Of a DNA stretch of 64,000 nucleotides, positions 31,660 to 55,523 are shown piece by piece. The DNA lies in assembly GCA_013298185.1 (NCBI GenBank), contig JAAFJQ010000003.1:694-64693 (forward strand), given 5' to 3'. The translations under genes and the position numbers were made by a program. This DNA is from Deinococcales bacterium. GTDB lineage: Bacteria > Deinococcota > Deinococci > Deinococcales > JAAFIG01. The notes beneath the pieces are model-generated. The model did no database searches and was not told the origin of the DNA. It saw only the letters and a list, made by a program, of their open reading frames with translations. Position 1 is the first letter of the stretch. Each line of letters starts with the position of its first letter.

Positions 31660-33186
31660 ATGAAAAGTTCACAAGTCATGACGGCACTGGCAATTATTTT
31701 TGGACTTGGTGCAATTGGAGTGGCATTGCGCTCGGCTGGAGCGGGTGAAACACGCCCGATGCGCCCCACAAGTTTGCATGGCGCTCATATGAGTCTGGCT
31801 AATCCAGCCACCAGTGGCAAAGTCCCAGCGCTGCTGGATTACATTCCTAATTATTACCAGCATGTCAAACCAATCCTCGAGGCAAATTGTGTTTCGTGTC
31901 ATGTCAAGGACGGCATTGCACCTTTTGCCTTAACCAGTTTTGAAGATGCCAAAGCCAATCATCGGCAAATTTATTTGGACACCCGCGCTCAAAGAATGCC
32001 GCCTTTTCCACCCAACGGTGAAAGCCCTAAGTTTAAGCACGAATTGCGTATCAGCCAAGAAGAAATTGCGATTCTTGCCAATTGGTCATGGAGTGGCGCT
32101 CCGGCTGGCGATAGTAAAAAAGCGGTTTCAGCGGTTTCAAAAGTCTCGAGGGTCAATATCCGTCAGGACTTGAAGCTCTCAATGCCCAAAGTTTTTATGC
32201 CAAACGACAAGTTATCCGATGAGTACCGCTGCTTTATTGTTGACCCAAAACTCGAGGGTGAACGGTTTATTACGGGGTACGACATCCTACCCGGCAATGC
32301 AGCCGTGGTACATCATGTGCTGATGTTTGAACTCGAGAACAGCCTGATTCCCGAGGCTCAAAAACTTGAACGTGAAGAAGGCGACAACCGCGATGGTTAC
32401 ACCTGCTTTGGTGGACCAAGGGTAGCCAATGGCTTGCAACCTATTGGTGCTTGGGCGCCTGGTAGCCCAGCTGTAAAATTTCCTGAAGGCACTGGTATTC
32501 GCCTGAAAACTGGTTCGCAACTGTTGCTGCAAGTGCATTACAACCTTGCCAACGGCTCAAAACCAGATCAGAGCGCAGTGAAACTCGAGGTTGCACCAAT
32601 TGGTACTCGCTTAAAAGCGATTCTCAATTTTGCCCCAACTGCCCCGGTTGAACTGCCCTGCCCGGGGGCTTACCCAAGCGATCCGAAAAATCCTTGTAAC
32701 CGCGAAGCTGCTTATGATCGTGTTCTTGCCTTGAATAACTCGAGTGGCAACCGCAACCGCAAAGGAGGCAGTGTCTTACGCAGTTGTGTTCGTAACTTGG
32801 AGCAGTACATCAATGGTTCGGACGCAACCAACATTGAAACCGTTTGCGAATACCCAGTTCCAGCCAATTTAACGCTGCATGGTTTAGCTGGTCACATGCA
32901 CTACCTTGGTAAAAGCATTAAGCTCGAGATCAACCCAAACCGAGCCAATCGCACGGTGCTGCTTGATATCCCCAACTGGGATTTCCACTGGCAAGGTTTT
33001 TACTGGTTTGAAAAACCAGTAGCGGTTCAACCCGGCGATGTTTTCCGAATCACTTGTGTTTTTGATAACAGCCAAGCCAACCAACCGTACCTTGGCGGCG
33101 AGCAACGCAAACCCAAATACTTGGTTTGGGGCGAAGGCACAGAAGAAGAAATGTGCTTGGGCTATATCCAAACCACCCTAAATTAA
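31660..33186 (+). CDS. membrane-anchored CxxCH-motif protein fused to a PHM/DBH-like type II copper monooxygenase
   Basis: N-terminal anchor VMTALAIIFGLGAIGVAL and haem motif CVSCH. Motifs VVHHVLMF, LLLQVHYN, GHMHYLGK and EEMCLGY align with the PHM copper ligands (HH, H, HxH, M). The start could also be the ATG at 31633. Confidence 0.75.
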   Translation: MKSSQVMTALAIIFGLGAIGVALRSAGAGETRPMRPTSLHGAHMSLANPATSGKVPALLDYIPNYYQHVKPILEANCVSCHVKDGIAPFALTSFEDAKANHRQIYLDTRAQRMPPFPPNGESPKFKHELRISQEEIAILANWSWSGAPAGDSKKAVSAVSKVSRVNIRQDLKLSMPKVFMPNDKLSDEYRCFIVDPKLEGERFITGYDILPGNAAVVHHVLMFELENSLIPEAQKLEREEGDNRDGYTCFGGPRVANGLQPIGAWAPGSPAVKFPEGTGIRLKTGSQLLLQVHYNLANGSKPDQSAVKLEVAPIGTRLKAILNFAPTAPVELPCPGAYPSDPKNPCNREAAYDRVLALNNSSGNRNRKGGSVLRSCVRNLEQYINGSDATNIETVCEYPVPANLTLHGLAGHMHYLGKSIKLEINPNRANRTVLLDIPNWDFHWQGFYWFEKPVAVQPGDVFRITCVFDNSQANQPYLGGEQRKPKYLVWGEGTEEEMCLGYIQTTLN

Positions 33187-46724: not shown

Positions 46725-49700
46725 TTAGAACTTGAGGGCGTAGGTGATACGGAAGCGTTGACCGAAGATTGGTTGTGCCAAGCTGAAGTCACTGAACGCA
46801 AAGATACCGTATTCAAAGTTCAAACCATAGTAGCCAAAGTTAGCGTAGATACCGCTGACGTTTGCGCCAGCAGCGGTGCTATCGCTACCCCATGAGCCAA
46901 CACCGACTGGTGCGGCGAAGCTAGGTCCAAAGCCTGAACCGTTACGGTTTGTATCGGTACGTGAAGCAAATTGGATACCAAAGGTGCTTGGAGCGCCAAA
47001 TGGTCCAACTGCCCAGTTCAAGCCAAGCAAGAACCAACCAGTGCTTGCAGTGAAGTTGGTGGCTGCGGTGTGGCTGGTGGTGTCATATGCCAAACCGAGG
47101 GTGATTGCCGAACCGAACAAGAAGTTACCGCTGGCTGTGACCGCACCACCGAAGTTGGTTGGGTCGTCAGCGCCGAATGCAGCACCGTTGCTTGGTGTGG
47201 AAATGGTGCTGAAGTAGGCTTTTGGTGCAATGTCGAAGCCAGCCAAGTTGAACTTGGTGTCAACATACGCATAGAAGCGGGTATCAGTTTCAACGCTAAA
47301 GCTGTCACGGACACGCACACCCAAGGCGATATTCACGCCACCGATAAGCGCTCCAGCTTTTGTGCCATCGTGAGCAGCGGTGAATTCGAGTGTGCCACGG
47401 CTACGGACAGCTGTTGCGCCAGCGATTTCGTTCTCAAAGTCGTACTTCAGACCAAAGTCAAAGCCGAGCAGTCTAAAGCCAGTCAATGAGAAGCCGTAGT
47501 CGGTTTCAGCAGTGGCTGAAGCAACATTGGTGTCTGATTTTGGACCGTTGCCCAAAGCAACGCCTGGGTCGAGGCGACCACGGGCATCGTAGTACAAGGC
47601 AAAGCTGAACAAGCCAAAGATGTTCTTGATACCCAAGTCAACACCAAAGCCAGTTTGGTTCTTGGCGTACTTGCCATCTGAACCAAGTCCGTTGAAGTGA
47701 CCGTCAACAAAGCGGTAGTTAATACCGACGGTGAATGGATCGAGGTTAGCACCAACTTCAACAAAGGCAGCTGCGCTGCTTGCAATGGTTGGGGTGTCGC
47801 TCTTGTTCAATTCGCCCTTGAGATCCAAGAAGCCGAACAATTTACCGCCGAAATCCAAACCGTAAATGGTTGTGGTGTTGTTTGGCGAACCGAGGACATC
47901 TTGACCTTCGTAGCCGTAGTAAACGCCGCCACGGAAGCCTGGGATCAAGCTGGCAGTACCACGCACACCGGCGAAGTAACGGAAGTCACCGTTGTTGGAA
48001 GTACCAGCACTTGCCCCATTTGCCTGTGCAGCGGCAGTGATAGCGGTAACCGTACCGACGCTGGTTGGCAAGCTCAGATTTGTGCTTGTATCTGTGCCAA
48101 AGTCAACCGTATAGTTTGTACCATTGACGTTAATACGGAAGATTGTTGCAGTCGCATTACCAGTTACAGTACGCAAGTTAGCCAAGCTCAAGCTGACACG
48201 ACTGCTACCGTCTGAGCCAGTAATCAACTGGGTAACGGCAGCACCTGGGTTGTTGCCCGGGGTGTAAATTGAAACAGCAGCTCCGAAAGTCTGACCAATT
48301 GCACCATTCCTCGAGCCGTAAACAAAGGTCAAAGCCATATCGAGTGGCAACAAGCCTGCGCCGCTGAGTTGGGCAACAAAGCCTGCACCGCGTCCGCTGG
48401 TGTTCTTGAAGCCGTAGTCGGTAAAGCTGAAACCTGGTGTGTAACCAAAGTTAATCAGCAATGGTGCGCTACCAACATTGAACAAGGTTTGGAAAGCGGA
48501 AATACGGATGACTGGGTTAAAGCCAAAGGCATTGCTTGGATCGGTGAAGTTGCGGGTGCCACCATCGGTGAACGACAACACAAGGTTGAAGTTCGGGTAG
48601 GTGTTCCAGCTGTTGCTGCTCTCGATCAAGTTGCGTGGACGGAAAGTAAACGCCAAGTTCAGACCGTAGGTAACAACGCCTTCGGTACGGACGCCTGCTG
48701 CGGTGCTTAGAGTTCCACCTGCTAATGGACGTACCAATCCGTTCGTAACAGCCAAGCTGTTTCCGAAGTCGGAAACCGCAGTACCACCTGAAGCATAGCC
48801 AACTCGAGCCAAACCAAGGCGGTCAATATCGAAGTCGTTAGCGCCAACGTTTGCGCCACCAGCGGTGGTCCAAACTCGAGCTGTGTTGTAGGTCAAGCTG
48901 ATTGTTCCACCAATGGTGAAAGCACTTGCCTCGAGGGTAGCAACGCGACCTTCGACAGCTGTAACACGTCCTGCGACTCGAGCCAAGTCTGCTTCAACAG
49001 AGCCAACGCGGTCAGCAAGGGCGGTTTGGTCGCGGCGGAGGAGCGTGGTGAATTCGCGCAAGGATTCCAAGTCGTCTTGGCTTGCAGCGCTGTCAGCCAA
49101 GTCAGCCAAACCAGCATTGGTCACGGACAAGCCGCGCTCGAGTTGGGTTGTGCGGTCTTGGAGGCTCAGCACGTCTTGGTTCAAAAGAACAACAAGGTCG
49201 TTTAGAGCAGCAATGCTGTCGGCTTGACCTTCGACGGTTGCGCCGAGTTCGCCGAGTTGGCTCTCGAGGTCGTCAATGCGACCATTGAGTTCGTCGTAAC
49301 GGTCTTGGAGTTCACGAGCTTGAGCAAGTGCGGTGTCAGCAGCGATGCTGGTTGCTTCGACTTGATCGGTCAAGTCGGCAAATGCGGCTGGGTCAACACC
49401 GGCTGGCAAGTTCTCGAGGGCAGAAGCGACTGCTTCGGCAAGGTCACGGGCTTGGTTGGCGGTTTCTGCAACAGCAGCCAAGTCGTCGTTGGTGGCGTAA
49501 TCGCCAGCTGGTTGGGCTTCTTGGGCAAGTGCCAAGGCATCATCAGCAGTTTGTTGTGCAACTTCGGCAGCAGCCAAAGCAGCAGCAGCAGCGTCGGCGG
49601 CGTCCATGGCAGCTGCCATAGCGTCGTCGGCGGTTTCCTGTGCATTTGCAGCAGCGCCTAATGCGTCATCGGCGCTTTGTTGTGCAACTTCAACACCAGC

Positions 49701-51122
49701 AGCAGCATCGTCGGCGGTTTGTTGCGCGGCGGCAGCAGCAGCCAGTGCATCGTCGGCGGTTTGTTGCGCGGTAGCAGCAGCAGCAGCGGCAGCGTCGGCA
49801 GAATCTTGAGCAGCCATTGCCATTTGTGCAGCATCAGCAGCAGCTGCCATAGCGTCATCGGCGGTTTGTTGTGCGTTTGCAGCAGCGCCTAATGCGTCGT
49901 CGGCGCTTTGTTGTGCAACTTCAACACCAGCAGCAGCGTCGTCGGCGGTTTGTTGCGCGGCGGCAGCAGCAGCCAGTGCATCGTCGGCGGTTTGTTGGGC
50001 AGCCATGGCAGCAGCCATTGCATCATCAGCGCTTTGTTGGGCGTTGGCAGCGGCGTTGATTGCATCGTCGGCGGTTTGTTGGGCAGCACTTGCACCAGCA
50101 GCAGCGTCATCGGCAGCTTGTTGGGCAGCAGCAGCAGCAGCCAAGGCGTCGTCGCCTGTTTGTTGGGCAGCAGCAGCAGCAGCAGCGGCAGCGTCGGCGC
50201 TTTCTTGAGCGGCGGCAGCGGCAGCCATGGCGTCATCGCCTGTTTGTTGGGCAGCAGCAGCAGCACCTAATGCGTCGTCGGCGGTCTGTTGAGCAGCAGC
50301 AGCGGCAGCAGCAGCGTCATCGGCTGCTTGTTGTGCAGCAGCAGCAGCAGCCAGTCCGTCGTCGCCTGTTTGTTGGGCAGCGGCGGCAGCAGCGTTGGCA
50401 GCGTCGGCAGCAGCACCAGCAGCATCAGCGGTTTGTTGAGCGCCAGCAGCGGCAGCACCGGCTGCATCAGCTGCTTGTTGTGCAGCAGCAGCGCTGTCGC
50501 TTGCAGCTTGGGCAGCGCCAGCAGCAGCTTCGGCGAGGTCGCGGGCTTGGGTGGCAATTTCTTCAACGCGAGCCAAGTCGTCGGCAGTGACTGCGTTGTC
50601 CTCGAGTTCGGCAACGCGAACACCGAGTTGGGCAAGGTCAGCAGCCAATTCTTGGATGGCGTTTTGCAAAACAACCAAGTCAGCGGCGGTCAAGAAATTC
50701 TTAAGGTCGTCTTTGGTCGCGACATTGGTTGGCAATGGAGCAGTTCCGCCAGTTTGTGCAGCTTTGATAGCAGCATCCAAGTCAGCTTTGGTAGCGTAAC
50801 GTGGAATGCCACATTCGCCGTTGCGGACAGCGTCGAGCAAACGAGCAACAATAGCGGCGGCTTGGTAACGGCTCACTGGTTCGTTACCACGGAAAGTGCC
50901 ATCTGGGAAACCACGAACGATACCGCAGTTCGCAGCGACTTGGATGGCGGCGGATGCCCAGTGACCGGCTGGAATGTCTTTCAATTCAGCTGGTTTCTGG
51001 TTTTGAGTCTGGGCGGTTGCTGGATCTACTTGCCCAGTTGGGTTGGTGCCTGTTTGCGCGAACGCGGTAGCTCCCGCACTGAGCGCAGCAGTCAACAACA
51101 TTGCAGCCGTGATTTTCTTCAT
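46725..51122 (-). CDS. slpA: giant SlpA-type envelope protein: SLH domain, Ala-rich coiled coil and C-terminal beta-barrel
   Basis: 1465 aa. Signal peptide MKKITAAMLLTAALSAGATAFAQ. SLH motif DIPAGHWASAAIQVAANCGIVRGFPDGTFRGNEPVSRYQAA. The C-terminal part is rich in alternating G/S/T/aromatic beta-strand patterns and ends YALKF. Confidence 0.85.
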   Translation of the reverse strand: MKKITAAMLLTAALSAGATAFAQTGTNPTGQVDPATAQTQNQKPAELKDIPAGHWASAAIQVAANCGIVRGFPDGTFRGNEPVSRYQAAAIVARLLDAVRNGECGIPRYATKADLDAAIKAAQTGGTAPLPTNVATKDDLKNFLTAADLVVLQNAIQELAADLAQLGVRVAELEDNAVTADDLARVEEIATQARDLAEAAAGAAQAASDSAAAAQQAADAAGAAAAGAQQTADAAGAAADAANAAAAAAQQTGDDGLAAAAAAQQAADDAAAAAAAAQQTADDALGAAAAAQQTGDDAMAAAAAAQESADAAAAAAAAAQQTGDDALAAAAAAQQAADDAAAGASAAQQTADDAINAAANAQQSADDAMAAAMAAQQTADDALAAAAAAQQTADDAAAGVEVAQQSADDALGAAANAQQTADDAMAAAADAAQMAMAAQDSADAAAAAAATAQQTADDALAAAAAAQQTADDAAAGVEVAQQSADDALGAAANAQETADDAMAAAMDAADAAAAALAAAEVAQQTADDALALAQEAQPAGDYATNDDLAAVAETANQARDLAEAVASALENLPAGVDPAAFADLTDQVEATSIAADTALAQARELQDRYDELNGRIDDLESQLGELGATVEGQADSIAALNDLVVLLNQDVLSLQDRTTQLERGLSVTNAGLADLADSAASQDDLESLREFTTLLRRDQTALADRVGSVEADLARVAGRVTAVEGRVATLEASAFTIGGTISLTYNTARVWTTAGGANVGANDFDIDRLGLARVGYASGGTAVSDFGNSLAVTNGLVRPLAGGTLSTAAGVRTEGVVTYGLNLAFTFRPRNLIESSNSWNTYPNFNLVLSFTDGGTRNFTDPSNAFGFNPVIRISAFQTLFNVGSAPLLINFGYTPGFSFTDYGFKNTSGRGAGFVAQLSGAGLLPLDMALTFVYGSRNGAIGQTFGAAVSIYTPGNNPGAAVTQLITGSDGSSRVSLSLANLRTVTGNATATIFRINVNGTNYTVDFGTDTSTNLSLPTSVGTVTAITAAAQANGASAGTSNNGDFRYFAGVRGTASLIPGFRGGVYYGYEGQDVLGSPNNTTTIYGLDFGGKLFGFLDLKGELNKSDTPTIASSAAAFVEVGANLDPFTVGINYRFVDGHFNGLGSDGKYAKNQTGFGVDLGIKNIFGLFSFALYYDARGRLDPGVALGNGPKSDTNVASATAETDYGFSLTGFRLLGFDFGLKYDFENEIAGATAVRSRGTLEFTAAHDGTKAGALIGGVNIALGVRVRDSFSVETDTRFYAYVDTKFNLAGFDIAPKAYFSTISTPSNGAAFGADDPTNFGGAVTASGNFLFGSAITLGLAYDTTSHTAATNFTASTGWFLLGLNWAVGPFGAPSTFGIQFASRTDTNRNGSGFGPSFAAPVGVGSWGSDSTAAGANVSGIYANFGYYGLNFEYGIFAFSDFSLAQPIFGQRFRITYALKF
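49490..50530 (-). repeat. tandem 42-nt (14-codon) repeats inside slpA, with a 231-bp higher-order duplication
   Basis: At least 18 units of the type QQTADDAxAAAAAA. 49646-49766 is near-identical to 49877-49997 (2 mismatches seen). Confidence 0.85.
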
Positions 51123-51566: not shown

Positions 51567-53000
51567 CTATTGGAGTAAACTACCTCGAGCTTGCATCGGT
51601 TGAGAAAAAATTAAAATCGTCAGGATGTTCAGTAACAACAACAACAGCACTTGAGGCAGCATCCTCAGAACCACACCTCGAGTATCCTTGGCTTGGCTCG
51701 AGGCTTTTTGGTACGTGATGTACAAACCAGCAAAAAAGGCGAGGTATGTCACCACCACCTGAAAAGGAAAAATCGCATCCAAACGCGGCGTGACCGCCAA
51801 AGGCGCTGGCTCGAGCGGCAACCCTAGGCGCATGAAAGCGGTGATGATGTTGGGGTACAAGGTGTTTGCCCCAGTCACAAAATGAAATAGGTAATGCCCG
51901 CCCCAAATCGAGAGTAGAATCGGATACAAAACCCCGACCCAATCGCGCAGATGACCCGAGGCTCGAGCCGCCAAGACCGTCAGACCAACTCCTAAACCCA
52001 GTGCAACCACAAAAATCAAAGCCAACAGCAGCGCTTCATCTCGAGTACCGAGCAGACCAGATAGCCAATTTGCCAAGTTATAATACGGCGGAATCATCGC
52101 AAAGGCATTCAGCAGCCCCGCCCAAGTCAGCAGCAGCACAAACCAAGTCCAATCGGTTTTGGGTTTGCTATGCAATGCTTCACGCAACGGATTTCTGACC
52201 TCGAGCGCGACATTGTCATACGGGCAGGCCCGAACGCAGTTCAGGCAGAGCGTGCAATCTTCGTTGCTGCTGATACTCGGCACAAACAAATTGGTTTCGC
52301 AGCCCGAGAACGCCCCAAGTGGTTTGGCGTTCATTGGCTCGAGTTGCAACAGCACATGCTCGGCGCGGTTGCCAAGCATCGGCGCTCGAGTGCTGGCAGT
52401 CTCGAGCCGACCATTGAGACAGTACTTGCCTTCGCAACTCGAGCAGACGTTATGGTCTTTGGCAGTAATTTGGGTTGGGCTAACCGTCGAGAGCGCAAAG
52501 TTGAAGTTACCCAGTGGGCAAACATATTTGCAAAATGTTCCCACCGGAAAAAGTGCATCCACAAAAAACGCTGCCACAAAATACCCAACAATCAGCCAAG
52601 CCGTCAGCCAAGGACTTGCCCAGAGGTCAAAGTGTTCATAAGAAAATAGGAATACAAGTGTGGCAGCCAGCACCAAGTACTTGTTTTTTAGCGCTCGAGG
52701 GAAAGAAAATTCGGGCAGGAAACGCTTCGCCAGTTTGGTCGCACCTCGAGTCAGCATCAAAGGGCAAGCGGCGCAAAATAAATTACCAAACACAGCAATT
52801 GCCAAAGCCACCAGCCCACGATAATGCACCCAAACCGCCACGGTTGCGGTGTTGGTTGGCGCGAGTTGTCGCCCAGAAAAACCATCGTAAATTGCAAGAA
52901 GTGCGATTGCCAGCAGCGGCACTTGCAGCACAAACCTCGAGTAACGCCAGCGCAGAAAACCACCCAGAAGTGGAACACGCAAAACGTCTAAACGGGTCAT
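51567..53000 (-). CDS. integral-membrane polyferredoxin (CcoG/FixG/NapH-like 4Fe-4S protein)
   Basis: 477 aa with multiple TM helices. Cys clusters CAACP, CKYVCP, CSSCEGKYC and CTLCLNCVRACP. Confidence 0.8.
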   Translation of the reverse strand: MTRLDVLRVPLLGGFLRWRYSRFVLQVPLLAIALLAIYDGFSGRQLAPTNTATVAVWVHYRGLVALAIAVFGNLFCAACPLMLTRGATKLAKRFLPEFSFPRALKNKYLVLAATLVFLFSYEHFDLWASPWLTAWLIVGYFVAAFFVDALFPVGTFCKYVCPLGNFNFALSTVSPTQITAKDHNVCSSCEGKYCLNGRLETASTRAPMLGNRAEHVLLQLEPMNAKPLGAFSGCETNLFVPSISSNEDCTLCLNCVRACPYDNVALEVRNPLREALHSKPKTDWTWFVLLLTWAGLLNAFAMIPPYYNLANWLSGLLGTRDEALLLALIFVVALGLGVGLTVLAARASGHLRDWVGVLYPILLSIWGGHYLFHFVTGANTLYPNIITAFMRLGLPLEPAPLAVTPRLDAIFPFQVVVTYLAFFAGLYITYQKASSQAKDTRGVVLRMLPQVLLLLLLNILTILIFSQPMQARGSLLQ

Positions 53001-53007
53001 GGATGAT

Positions 53008-53403
53008 TCATGGGTTCACCCCAAGCCTCGTTTCGCCAAGCAGGGTTTTGGAATTGGTCTTGGCGGTGATGCTCAGCACCCAATCACCCGACATGGTGAA
53101 ATGAAACGCCTCGAGCCGATAACGCCCATTGCCGATTGCCTTAGCGGTTTGTTGGACAGGTGCCATACCCGCATGGGTCATATCACCACGCACAATCACT
53201 TCGGCATTCTCGAGGGGCTTATTTTGATAGAGCAAGGTCAGGGTGATTGGGGCAAAACCAACTTTGGGATTCGTGACCTCGAGTTTGACGGTCAGGTCGT
53301 TTTGTTGGGGTGGGGCGCAAGCGATCAGGAAAACAAACAGGCTTTGAGCTATGAGCTTTGAGCCATGAGGGGGAACTCGAGAAGGGTAGCCCGAGAGCTT
53401 CAT
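53008..53403 (-). CDS. YtkA/FixH-like lipoprotein
   Basis: Lipobox LFVFLIAC. DMTHAGM and FTMSGDW are typical of the YtkA-like domain. Confidence 0.65.
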   Translation of the reverse strand: MKLSGYPSRVPPHGSKLIAQSLFVFLIACAPPQQNDLTVKLEVTNPKVGFAPITLTLLYQNKPLENAEVIVRGDMTHAGMAPVQQTAKAIGNGRYRLEAFHFTMSGDWVLSITAKTNSKTLLGETRLGVNP

Positions 53404-53906
53404 GGCTGGACTTCCTTATTCTTGGGGCGGGTGAATAAGACCAATGCCAAGGCAATCAAGGCAATCACCACGGGCAATGCAGCCAAAATGATTAAGAGGG
53501 TGATGTCGGGTTGACCAACTTTTGAAGGCGGTAAAACCAAACGCACTGGTTCTTTCAGTGGAAACTGCACAGTGGCAGCCACCTCGAGGGCTTCTTGTGG
53601 GAAGGTGGTATCGCGGAATTTCAGGGTGTACGTACCACTTGGGATTTGCACTGGAACTCGGTACTCACCGTCGGCAATGGGTTTGACTGTGCCACTCGAG
53701 ATTTCGCCAGCATCGGATAAAAAACTGTAGGCAAGGGTCGCACCGTTGATGGGTTCGCCTTGGACACCGTTCATCAGGACGACAAGGTCTTTGCCTTCGG
53801 TGAAGGTATCTAAATTCACAGCAACAGCATGGGCAAGGGCAGAGGAAAGGGGAAAGAGGAAAGAGGAAAGAAAAAGCAGTAAGTAGAGGAAACGCATCGA
53901 GCGCAT
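53400..53906 (-). CDS. secreted Ig-like protein with a predicted N-terminal His and a C-terminal TM anchor
   Basis: The ATG at 53906 starts signal peptide MRSMRFLYLLLFLSSFLFPLSSALA, followed by HAVAV. C-terminal anchor ITLLIILAALPVVIALIALALVLF. ATGA-type overlap with the next gene. Confidence 0.6.
   Translation of the reverse strand: MRSMRFLYLLLFLSSFLFPLSSALAHAVAVNLDTFTEGKDLVVLMNGVQGEPINGATLAYSFLSDAGEISSGTVKPIADGEYRVPVQIPSGTYTLKFRDTTFPQEALEVAATVQFPLKEPVRLVLPPSKVGQPDITLLIILAALPVVIALIALALVLFTRPKNKEVQP
53838..53892. repeat. purine-only heptamer array lying inside coding sequence (it encodes the signal peptide on the other strand)
   Basis: GCAGAGGAAAGGGGAAAGAGGAAAGAGGAAAGAAAAAGC. The reverse strand encodes FLYLLLFLSSFLFPLSSA. 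Confidence 0.8.
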
Positions 53907-54072
53907 GGCAAAATTGTAGCGCAGATTCTTATAGACGTTTGCCTGTCTCAAGTTGTACGGCACAAGTACGCCAAATAGCCCAAGGCAAAAAAAACGATTC
54001 TCGAGTAGGCTAATAAGAGAACTCGAGGAAGGAGGAAAGAGGAACGAAAAATTCAAAACCGTTTCGTTTTAT

Positions 54073-54894
54073 ATGTTTACTTTCCTTGATTTCCTCGATA
54101 TTGCGCTGGTCACGGTACTGCTCTACCAAGCCTACCGTCTGATGGCGGATTCACGCACACTGAACTTGGTGCGCGGTTTGGTGGTTTTTGGCTTGACTTT
54201 GTACGCGGCTCGGTGGTTGGGTTTGACCACGCTGTACGCGATTCTCGAGCGGATCGCAGCGATTGGTGTGTTTGCTTTGATTGTGATTTTTCAACCTGAA
54301 CTCCGCGCTGTTCTCGAGCGGGTTGGCAGACCACGACAAACCGAGGATACCCCGCAGTTCTTGGCGCTGAACGAAATCACTCGAGCTGTGGAATGGTTGG
54401 CAGAACGTAAAATTGGGGCGCTGATTGCCTTGGAACGCCAAACGCCGCTGGGCGATTACGCTGGCAGTGGGATTAAACTCGATGCTGAAGTTTCAAGTGG
54501 TTTACTCGAGACCATTTTTGCTCGGAACACACCGCTACACGATGGCGGGGTGATTGTGCAGCACGGACGGATTCGGGCAGCGGGTTGCTTATTTCCACTG
54601 CAAAGCGATTCAAGCGGGGTGCAGCGTTTTCTTGGCACGCGCCACCGTGCAGCGTTGGGTTTATCTGACCAGACCGATGCTTTAATTGTTGTGGTTTCCG
54701 AGGAACGCGGTTCGGTTCGCTTAGCCGAAAGCGGGGTTCTTAGCCCAGATTTAACCGTCCTCGAGTTGCGCGAACGGCTTCGCACATCCACCGTGCAGAA
54801 AACCGCACCCAGCAAAATTCGGCGTTTTGGTTTAACCAGACAAAAACTCCAAGAAAGTCGTCAAAATCCTTCTGAGGTTGGCAATGCAAGCTAG
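54073..54894 (+). CDS. cdaA: diadenylate cyclase CdaA (DisA_N domain)
   Basis: Three N-terminal TM helices, then TPLHDGGVIV and GTRHRAALGLSDQTDALIVVVSEERG. Confidence 0.9.
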   Translation: MFTFLDFLDIALVTVLLYQAYRLMADSRTLNLVRGLVVFGLTLYAARWLGLTTLYAILERIAAIGVFALIVIFQPELRAVLERVGRPRQTEDTPQFLALNEITRAVEWLAERKIGALIALERQTPLGDYAGSGIKLDAEVSSGLLETIFARNTPLHDGGVIVQHGRIRAAGCLFPLQSDSSGVQRFLGTRHRAALGLSDQTDALIVVVSEERGSVRLAESGVLSPDLTVLELRERLRTSTVQKTAPSKIRRFGLTRQKLQESRQNPSEVGNAS

Positions 54895-54902
54895 TTCTGA
54901 GG

Positions 54903-55523
54903 TTGGCAATGCAGGTTAAACTGCTCGAGCAGTTACGGCGTTATGGTTGGTTTGAAAATTGGTTGGCTAAACTTGGGGCGTTACTGATTGCGATTGTCTT
55001 GTGGTTTGCTGCCACCACCGAGCGCCGCACCACAGCAACCCGAAGCATCGAAGTGCCACTCGAGGTGCGAGGCTTAAGCGAAAACCGCGTGATCCAAGAC
55101 TTACCCAAAACCGTGCGCTTACAAATCCAAGGCGCTCGCAGTGAACTCGAGCAAATCCAAAGCAGCAACCTTGAAGCCAGCATCAACATCTCGAGTCGCC
55201 CCGATGGTTTTTTCTCGAGCGATGTTCGGGTTGACGCCCCAACCAACGTCAGCGTGATTTCTTATGAACCACGCCGCATTTCCGCCACCCTAAAAAGCGT
55301 GGTGCAAGAAAGTGTGCTGGTCAGAATTGCTTCGGATAACCCAGCTCAGACCTTCCCCTCGAGTTTCACAGTCCTAGCCATTGGTACAAGCGAACAAGTC
55401 AGCCAAGTTGCTTTTGCAGTTGGTATTGCAGGCAGCGCCCAAACCACCCTGACCCCAGTGGACAAGGACGGAAAATTTGTCGAAGGCGTGCGCCTCGAGC
55501 CAAGCAGTGTACAAATTAGGTAA
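54903..55523 (+). CDS. cdaR: YbbR-domain protein (CdaR-like regulator of CdaA)
   Basis: Has an N-terminal TM anchor followed by repeated YbbR-like beta modules (IEVPLEVRGL, VRLQIQG). Sits directly after cdaA. Confidence 0.7.
   Translation: MAMQVKLLEQLRRYGWFENWLAKLGALLIAIVLWFAATTERRTTATRSIEVPLEVRGLSENRVIQDLPKTVRLQIQGARSELEQIQSSNLEASINISSRPDGFFSSDVRVDAPTNVSVISYEPRRISATLKSVVQESVLVRIASDNPAQTFPSSFTVLAIGTSEQVSQVAFAVGIAGSAQTTLTPVDKDGKFVEGVRLEPSSVQIR

Follow-up and report, generated by a model that had tools for sequence, protein, structure and literature searches.

The window, by which we mean the whole 64,000-nucleotide (nt) stretch of Deinococcales DNA analysed here (GC content near 50%), carries three consecutive open reading frames (ORFs) on the minus strand between positions 53906 and 51567. 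All are read in the same direction, and we name them P1, P2 and P3 in transcription order: P1 encodes a secreted beta-sandwich protein, P2 a lipoprotein with a YtkA domain, and P3 a membrane polyferredoxin (Table 1). A preliminary description of this DNA had proposed that three minus-strand genes, separated by a short overlap and a short gap, together bind, reduce and hand over copper. The coordinates bear out the arrangement, as the P2 ATG overlaps the P1 stop codon as ATGA (4 nt) and 7 nt separate the P2 stop codon from the P3 start, and we treat the three genes as one operon-like module. P1 would be 165 amino acids long if started at its second ATG (53897), the start used in the public gene call for an identical protein. 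In the close relative L004 (L-numbers denote comparison loci), the gene order is identical to that in the window, namely cdaA, P1, YtkA, polyferredoxin and SlpA. Rfam, promoter and terminator scans around the cluster returned no riboswitch, sigma-70 consensus promoter or clear terminator. In public annotations the module proteins appear only as 'polyferredoxin', '4Fe-4S binding protein' or 'hypothetical'.

Table 1. Positions of the three genes and of their predicted domains and motifs in the window (TM, transmembrane).
Feature	Position	Strand	Basis
P1, secreted beta-sandwich protein with C-terminal membrane anchor, 168 amino acids	53400..53906	-	ORF; 36 homologues; alignment; AlphaFold2 model
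His26 codon, predicted mature N-terminal residue of P1 (...ALA, then HAV)	53829..53831	-	A25/H26 invariant in 27/27
P1 C-terminal TM anchor, residues 135-159	53430..53504	-	AlphaFold2 helix; conserved hydrophobic stretch, then RPK
P2, YtkA-domain lipoprotein, 131 amino acids	53008..53403	-	PF13115 match; lipobox; ATGA overlap with P1
DMTHAGM motif of P2, residues 74-80, putative Cu(I) Met/His site	53164..53184	-	MxH(A/P)GM in 60/60
P3, nine-TM polyferredoxin, 477 amino acids	51567..53000	-	1474 homologues; AlphaFold2 model; hhalign against YccM
CAACP, residues 76-80, Cys pair at predicted cytoplasmic end of TM2	52761..52775	-	C76, C79 and P80 invariant in 81 sequences
CKYVCP, residues 157-162, Cys pair at predicted cytoplasmic end of TM4	52515..52532	-	C157, C161 and P162 invariant
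Predicted cytoplasmic ferredoxin domain of P3, residues 176-280, eight Cys	52161..52475	-	Conservation; weak Fer4 matches; K/R-rich flanking loops
Family-specific five-TM C-terminal domain of P3, residues 282-477	51570..52157	-	No known family; conserved across phyla
H369-x3-H373 at predicted periplasmic end of TM7	51882..51896	-	H373 and W366 invariant; H369 at least 90%; predicted sidedness
QPM(Q/E)(A/M)RG motif at P3 C-terminus, residues 467-473, predicted periplasmic	51582..51602	-	P468, M469, R472 and G473 at least 90%

P2 scored 52.5 bits with the Pfam YtkA family (PF13115; cut-off 25.9), covering positions 3-84 of the 85 in the profile. The DMTHAGM motif by which it had been called YtkA-like is present, as is a lipobox (LIAC) in keeping with a lipoprotein. 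The lipobox cysteine, Cys29, is invariant in the P2-family alignment, as are M75, H77, G79, M80, M104 and W108. A single-pass phmmer search found one YtkA-like protein in 60 of 85 loci; a lipobox-like motif is present in 49 of these 60 proteins, and every one of them keeps the core of the segment that reads GDMTHAGM in P2. Fifty of the 60 genes share the strand of the P3 homologue and lie upstream of it at a distance of no more than 150 nt. In Bacillus subtilis, the lipoprotein YtkA (CtaK), whose His/Met residues are conserved, is needed together with Sco for CuA assembly of cytochrome caa3, and copper addition suppresses the defect (PMC9145763; PMC13344008). P2 resembles CtaK in being a lipoprotein, in its YtkA domain and in its conserved His/Met residues, but lacks the His-rich C-terminal tail described for CtaK and, in a layout that no description of Bacillus includes, shares an operon with a polyferredoxin.

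P3 contains the three cysteine motifs originally listed for it, CAACP, CKYVCP and CTLCLNCVRACP, and their cysteines are invariant or nearly so in 81 relatives drawn from many phyla, the alignment on which all P3 invariants were scored. The original list had missed C186-x2-C189-x4-C194 and C234, which contribute to a second cluster. Within the ferredoxin domain C186, C189, C194, C234, C249, C255 and C259 are invariant and C252 is conserved in at least 90% of sequences, giving eight cysteines, enough for two predicted [4Fe-4S] clusters. The CKYVCP region matches Pfam Fer4_5 in P3 relatives.

The likeness of P3 to CcoG/FixG, suggested in the preliminary description, proved to be one of superfamily and not of membership. 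P3 scored 9.0 bits (E=0.59) against the CcoG model TIGR02745, for which the equivalog cut-off is 316.7, and 31.9 bits against the NapH/MauN model TIGR02163 (cut-off 213), the nearest curated family. A tblastn search of P3 against plasmids recovered Salmonella NapH (E=2e-4) and a distant Deinococcus ficus paralogue, and no FixG. Aligned by hhalign, the 81-sequence P3 profile matched Escherichia coli YccM with a probability of 97.2% (E=3e-11, residues 52-272), and YccM itself matches NapH, NosR and CcoG models. By these profile comparisons, P3 is a distant member of the NapH/YccM/CcoG superfamily and not a CcoG orthologue. Membership of CcoG/FixG is ruled out by the 9-bit score, by the lack of any Pfam match in P3 to FixG_C (PF11614), the model showing five TM helices after the ferredoxin domain instead, and by the lack of a ccoGHIS context. 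Consistent with the earlier remark that the cluster is not linked to a cbb3 oxidase operon, ccoGHIS and ccoNOQP are absent from the window.

Among bacterial proteins CcoG is the one specific cupric reductase to have been described; it reduces Cu(II) and contains two Cu sites along with two [4Fe-4S] clusters, and YccM has been cited as a homologue without the immunoglobulin-like (Ig-like) domain (PMC7558416). Like CcoG/FixG/RdxA, P3 is a membrane polyferredoxin with TM-adjacent Cys pairs and two [4Fe-4S] motifs predicted to face the cytoplasm, and its family is associated with heme-copper oxidase biogenesis. Unlike CcoG, it has one Cys pair of the form CxxCP (CAACP) and not Cx3CP, and the oxidases near its relatives are A-type (COX1/2/3, CtaA/B). 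CcoG ends in a periplasmic Ig-like domain, whereas the Ig-like proteins P1 and P2 are encoded separately beside P3. NapH/MauN and E. coli YccM (TIGR02163, PRK09477) are the best curated sequence relatives; in contrast to these, P3 has an additional C-terminal membrane domain without counterpart, and no nap, mau or nos genes lie near it.

This C-terminal domain is specific to the family. Residues 282-477 had no Pfam or NCBIfam match, a profile search of Protein Data Bank (PDB) sequences with the P3 family returned nothing, and a Foldseek search of the P3 model against the PDB found nothing meaningful (best E=0.15, TM-score ~0.1). The AlphaFold2 model is of high confidence (predicted local distance difference test score, pLDDT, 92.7; predicted TM-score, pTM, 0.90). 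Helix positions and the distribution of K and R predict a topology with the N-terminus inside, nine TM helices and the C-terminus outside. Both Cys pairs and the ferredoxin domain would then lie on the cytoplasmic side, while Y121/E122/W127, N298/M302, W366/H369/H373 and the C-terminal QPMxxRG would face the periplasm. In the C-terminal half of the 81 sequences W366 and H373 are invariant, and H369, M302, P468, M469, R472 and G473 are conserved in at least 90%. A thiol-reductase role of the CcdA/DsbD kind for the TM Cys pairs was considered and judged unlikely for want of a conserved periplasmic cysteine.

P1 begins with a signal-like leader that ends in ...SSALA and is followed by HAVAV. Across 27 aligned homologues the leader differs in both length and sequence, with A throughout at position -1 and either A or V at -3, and conservation sets in exactly at A25-H26, both invariant. 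From the -3/-1 rule and this onset of conservation we predict cleavage after A25; the pattern is that expected for signal peptidase I cleavage exposing His26, which would be the sole His of a mature protein that also lacks Trp. The AlphaFold2 model (pLDDT 87.6) has a leader helix at residues 3-17, eight beta strands between 30 and 125 and, beyond a Pro-rich linker, a TM helix at 135-159. Alignment and model thus agree with the initial picture of an Ig-like protein with a C-terminal anchor and a predicted N-terminal His. The other invariant blocks, N46-I53, D79-R83 and D99-E105 (a DTTFPxE motif), all fall in loops, and because consecutive strands cross the sandwich in alternating directions we place these loops, with some caution, at its N-terminal end, a placement read from the secondary-structure string of the model and not from coordinates.

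The same early comparison had likened P1 to YcnI/CopC-type Cu(II) binders, and here only the predicted layout was upheld. P1 shares with YcnI a layout with a predicted signal peptide, a predicted first mature residue His, a small beta-sandwich and a single C-terminal TM anchor, and with both YcnI and CopC conserved carboxylates near the N-terminal end. However, it has no Pfam match to DUF1775 (YcnI, PF07987) or CopC (PF04234) at E≤1, and it lacks both the conserved Trp that stabilises the YcnI Cu site and the second His or DxH motif of the CopC Cu(II) site; Trp is part of the YcnI copper site and the second His part of the CopC site (PMC12362106). A specific YcnI or CopC fold was rejected because Foldseek matches of P1 in the PDB were generic Ig-like ones, all with E>0.001, and there was no profile match: a chain of the cbb3 'NOH' complex ranked second, CopC 5icu tenth (E=8.5e-3) and YcnI outside the top 50. 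Pfam and NCBIfam scans assigned P1 to no family, the sole match being a sub-threshold one to CarboxypepD_reg, a generic beta-sandwich, and a P1 profile search of PDB sequences found no relatives.

A relationship to P2 is moderately supported. In a small ORF database jackhmmer merged P1 with YtkA, and because such merging could be profile drift we retested the link with hhalign, which aligned the P1 core with the YtkA-like family over 57 columns (probability 88.5%, E=2.7e-6). In this alignment P1 has SDAGEISSG where YtkA has the Met/His segment GDMTHAGM. Because of the hhalign link and this replacement, P1 looks like a diverged YtkA-fold paralogue that would have lost a soft Met/His site and gained a hard-ligand N-terminal one. 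Its 36 close homologues all fall within one Deinococcales clade.

P3 relatives are far more widely distributed. Homologues found include proteins named from Deinococcales, Trueperaceae, Deinobacterium and Deinococcus; an exhaustive search over 50%-identity representatives gave 1412 relatives at E≤1e-3, 178 of them at E≤1e-30, and a scan of one genome per species gave 80 full-length P3 loci. The loci come from Deinococcota, Chloroflexota, Acidobacteriota, Planctomycetota, Gemmatimonadota, Rhodothermales, Verrucomicrobiota, Armatimonadota and a few Proteobacteria, and the module was found in at least eight phyla. An N-terminal Caa3_CtaG domain is fused to the P3-like region in 50 of the 150 best cluster representatives, one third of them, and Pfam confirmed it in all 13 long representatives whose P3-like region starts well inside the protein. 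Caa3_CtaG (PF09678) is an assembly factor of Bacillus-type cytochrome c oxidase, and the fusion genes lie within operons of cox and bc-complex genes. The window's own P3 has no CtaG domain, and we saw no CtaG gene in the window.

A gene-neighbourhood survey, one of the checks initially suggested, showed that in most lineages the gene immediately preceding P3 is a YtkA gene and that oxidase-related genes lie on the same strand within 6 kb at 20 of 84 comparison loci. Sco occurs at seven of the 84, directly adjacent at five, and COX1/2/3, CtaA/B, DUF420 (the CtaM family) and Rieske/cytochrome b are likewise among the neighbours of P3 homologues. Examples are the orders COX2-COX1-COX3-YtkA-P3-third gene (L077) and COX1/COX3/CtaG/CtaB/Sco/YtkA/P3 (L073); in Deinobacterium chartae P3 stands beside DUF420, CtaA, CtaB, COX2 and COX1. 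The CtaG::P3 fusion is found at ten loci, from Planctomycetota plus some Acidobacteriota and Bryobacteraceae, most of which read COX1-COX3-...-cytochrome c-Rieske-cytochrome b-[CtaG::P3]-DGGT protein; a metagenome-assembled genome (MAG) of Phycisphaerales (L085) has COX2-COX1-COX3-...-cytochrome b-[CtaG::P3]. Unbiased clustering of all neighbouring ORFs yielded no recurrent monooxygenase, multicopper oxidase, CopA, CsoR or CueR, and no Ftr1, P19 or other iron-transport gene was among the conserved neighbours of P3 homologues.

A third gene, encoding a signal peptide, a beta-sandwich and a C-terminal TM helix, usually follows P3 directly, and an anchored beta-sandwich gene with a predicted start of the form AxA-then-H accompanies P3 at about 49 of 85 loci across phyla. 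At 38 loci (e.g. L051:1458-1982) it belongs to a family with the predicted mature N-terminus H-x-G-P-P-F/Y-P, in which H, G, P and P are invariant in 34 aligned sequences alongside a W-x-x-P-D motif; this family always lies immediately downstream of the P3 homologue and has no Pfam family. We regard these proteins as candidate new N-terminal-His metal binders. Other predicted starts are HATLVFG in Trueperaceae, HAEPV in Deinobacterium, HFGEPY and HGTGTP at two Chloroflexota loci, and HILPL in Deinococcus ruber, where the gene lies upstream as in the window. Some third-gene families score weakly as YtkA. Because the H-x-G-P-P-F/Y-P family could not be linked to P1 or YtkA, we treat the third gene, on present comparisons, as an architectural class and not as one homologous family.

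Two further membrane proteins were observed at comparison loci. Directly upstream of the YtkA gene at 32 loci, mostly of Acidobacteriota (L034:4910-5527 and e.g. L015, L016, L018, L022, L024, L027 and L036), lies a gene for a conserved, very His-rich membrane protein of about 170-200 amino acids with HWxEH, WHHxEH and HHN motifs and a C-terminal CxC. Neither Pfam nor NCBIfam has a family for this protein, which in Acidobacteriota may be one more part of the module that handles copper. In D. ruber (L003:4010-5098), the P1-like gene is directly preceded by one for a 362-amino-acid multi-TM protein with conserved-looking His/Trp motifs (WDIQWHADVGPD...). Precomputed Pfam records list no hit for this protein, and the window does not encode it.

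Taken together, these observations favour, at a probability of about 0.55, a module that captures, reduces and hands over copper to serve an A-type (aa3/caa3) heme-copper cytochrome c oxidase. In this scheme P1, tethered by its C-terminal helix to the membrane's outer face, would capture Cu(II) through its free N-terminal His and nearby conserved carboxylates. P3 would supply reducing power through its two cytoplasmic [4Fe-4S] clusters and two membrane-edge Cys pairs, as proposed for CcoG, and the conserved periplasm-facing His/Met site in its five-TM domain would receive or release metal. P2 would then take Cu(I) at its Met/His site and pass the copper on to the oxidase, possibly via Sco. We favour capture, reduction and hand-over because of the parallels to YcnI/YcnJ and to a CcoG with its Ig-like domain in trans. 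The B. subtilis copper-acquisition pair of YcnI and YcnJ (CopC-CopD-YtkA) is a close parallel to the parts list of the module; YcnI, which is anchored and has an N-terminal His, binds Cu(II), and the pair supports heme-copper oxidases (PMC12362106; PMC13344008). An aa3/caa3-type oxidase is the likely client because of the CtaG fusions and the Sco, cox and bc-complex neighbours of P3 relatives. The functional outline of the preliminary description was therefore the best supported one, with the upstream YtkA gene adding to these fusions and neighbours, although several of its protein labels were wrong.

Several observations weigh against this interpretation. P3 falls far below the curated cut-offs of both CcoG and NapH, and because it misses the curated models so widely, cupric-reductase activity would carry over to it by analogy alone. 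P1 has neither the second His of CopC nor the Trp of YcnI; at about 13 loci, mostly CtaG-fused, the third gene starts with DGGT or NGGT and has no N-terminal His; and hhalign linked the H-x-G-P-P-F/Y-P family neither to P1 nor to YtkA. Oxidase, Sco and copper-transporter genes are absent from the 64-kb window. The main mechanistic gap is one of sidedness: in the predicted topology the iron-sulfur (Fe-S) clusters and Cys pairs are cytoplasmic and P1 and P2 lie outside, so either copper or electrons would need a path through the membrane, and there is no evident cofactor that could carry electrons that way. Either copper would pass through P3, or reduction would be cytoplasmic as in the CcoG model, with export by another protein.

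A different account takes P3 for a NapH/NosR-type quinol dehydrogenase or electron conduit that feeds periplasmic partners and does not reduce free Cu(II), with P1 and P2 as adaptors or redox partners; it might, for example, keep Sco or apo-CuA cysteines reduced or maintain a metal centre. NapH, NosR and MauN support periplasmic redox enzymes, the best curated matches of P3 are NapH/MauN and NosR-like models and not CcoG, the TM-end Cys pairs are common to P3 and NapH, and the association with Sco and cox genes is equally compatible with a thiol-reductant role. Yet neither P3, P1 nor P2 has a conserved periplasmic cysteine, the conserved periplasm-facing residues of P3 are His and Met, typical copper ligands, and the Met/His motif of P2 is of the Cu(I) type; metal handling and not thiol chemistry is also suggested by the fusion to CtaG, which is presumed to insert copper. 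We consider a conduit of this kind unlikely. An assignment to another metal or substrate, such as iron, as for the FtrD polyferredoxin of Ftr-type uptake, would make the copper-like features coincidental. NapH-like polyferredoxins do occur in non-copper systems, e.g. FtrABCD, and P1 has no detectable relationship to known copper proteins. Against this, copper is indicated by the YtkA domain and its invariant Met/His motif, by the fusions to CtaG and by the Sco and cox genes nearby; iron-transport genes are lacking among the conserved neighbours, and we judge the idea highly improbable.

The module could also serve copper uptake or tolerance more generally, supplying other envelope cuproenzymes or protecting against excess copper. 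The client first put forward was the monooxygenase encoded at 31660-33186. That gene, on the plus strand, encodes a PHM/DBH-like protein in which the two copper type II monooxygenase domains are both present (Pfam Cu2_monooxygen and Cu2_monoox_C), and PHM/DBH-like copper monooxygenases are unusual for bacteria. It lies 18 kb from the cluster in a window where no oxidase genes adjoin the module. Cells that lose CcoG become more sensitive to copper and those that overproduce it more tolerant (PMC7558416), and the parts of the module parallel the YcnI and YcnJ acquisition system (PMC12362106; PMC13344008). However, we found no link between the module and the monooxygenase, the two are unlinked in comparison genomes, and this proposed client was not borne out, the context pointing instead to an A-type oxidase. 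The recurrent neighbours in comparison loci are Sco, cox and bc-complex genes and CtaG, with no recurrence of monooxygenase, multicopper oxidase, CopA, CsoR or CueR genes, and YcnJ in B. subtilis chiefly supports heme-copper oxidases (PMC13344008). We therefore regard a general copper module as improbable.

The genes flanking the cluster in the window are of other kinds. A cdaA (diadenylate cyclase) gene and a ybbR-like gene at 53953-55523 (plus strand) diverge from its upstream end, an arrangement kept in L004, where the cdaA homologue has CdaA_N and DAC domains. Directly downstream, after 445 nt, lies an SlpA-like surface-layer (S-layer) gene at 46725-51122 (minus strand; 1465 amino acids) whose product combines an SLH-like N-terminal region with a long stretch of Ala/Gln-rich repeats (AAAAQQTADDA...) and a beta-rich C-terminal part; the syntenic homologue in L004 has Pfam SLH and SlpA_C. 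We also observed that the palindrome CTCGAG occurs 404 times in the window (positions 1-64000), about once per 158 bp against 9.6 copies expected from shuffles. It is the most abundant hexamer of the window, is evenly spread and has no extended flanking consensus. In a comparison covering the window and loci L004, L005, L006, L001 and L008, CTCGAG was also enriched at related Deinococcales MAG loci (4.7-6.3 per kb), in Deinobacterium (2.7 per kb) and in Truepera (3.0 per kb), and it was absent from the D. ruber locus. In kind it resembles HIP1 of cyanobacteria, a highly iterated palindrome, and would be specific to its lineage; a limited literature search found no description of it.

We found no description of the three-gene module in the literature searched, with an earlier mention possible in a CcoG family survey. 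What is new here is the C-terminal membrane domain of P3 and the N-terminal-His partner families; the CcoG/NapH superfamily and the YtkA chaperone are known. Copper reduction and delivery to aa3/caa3-type oxidases are understood in part only, and a 2026 study of B. subtilis noted that oxidase assembly possibly needs a localised, dedicated cupric reductase and that Firmicutes have no CcoG homologue (PMC13344008). We tentatively suggest, going further than the reading favoured above, that the P3 family, its YtkA partner and an N-terminal-His sandwich may form the dedicated machinery for cupric reduction and copper insertion that A-type oxidases have been missing, in which the five-TM domain would link the reducing power of cytoplasmic Fe-S clusters to a His/Met copper site facing the periplasm. 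In that case P3 would move copper or electrons across the membrane in a manner not described for CcoG. The P3 family, widespread and unannotated, with its repeated fusions to CtaG and its operons shared with YtkA, Sco and cox genes, is a testable candidate cupric reductase in many phyla. The same proposal, if true, would give a function to YtkA domains outside Bacillus and to unannotated families of anchored proteins with a predicted N-terminal His, which may be new Cu(II) binders.

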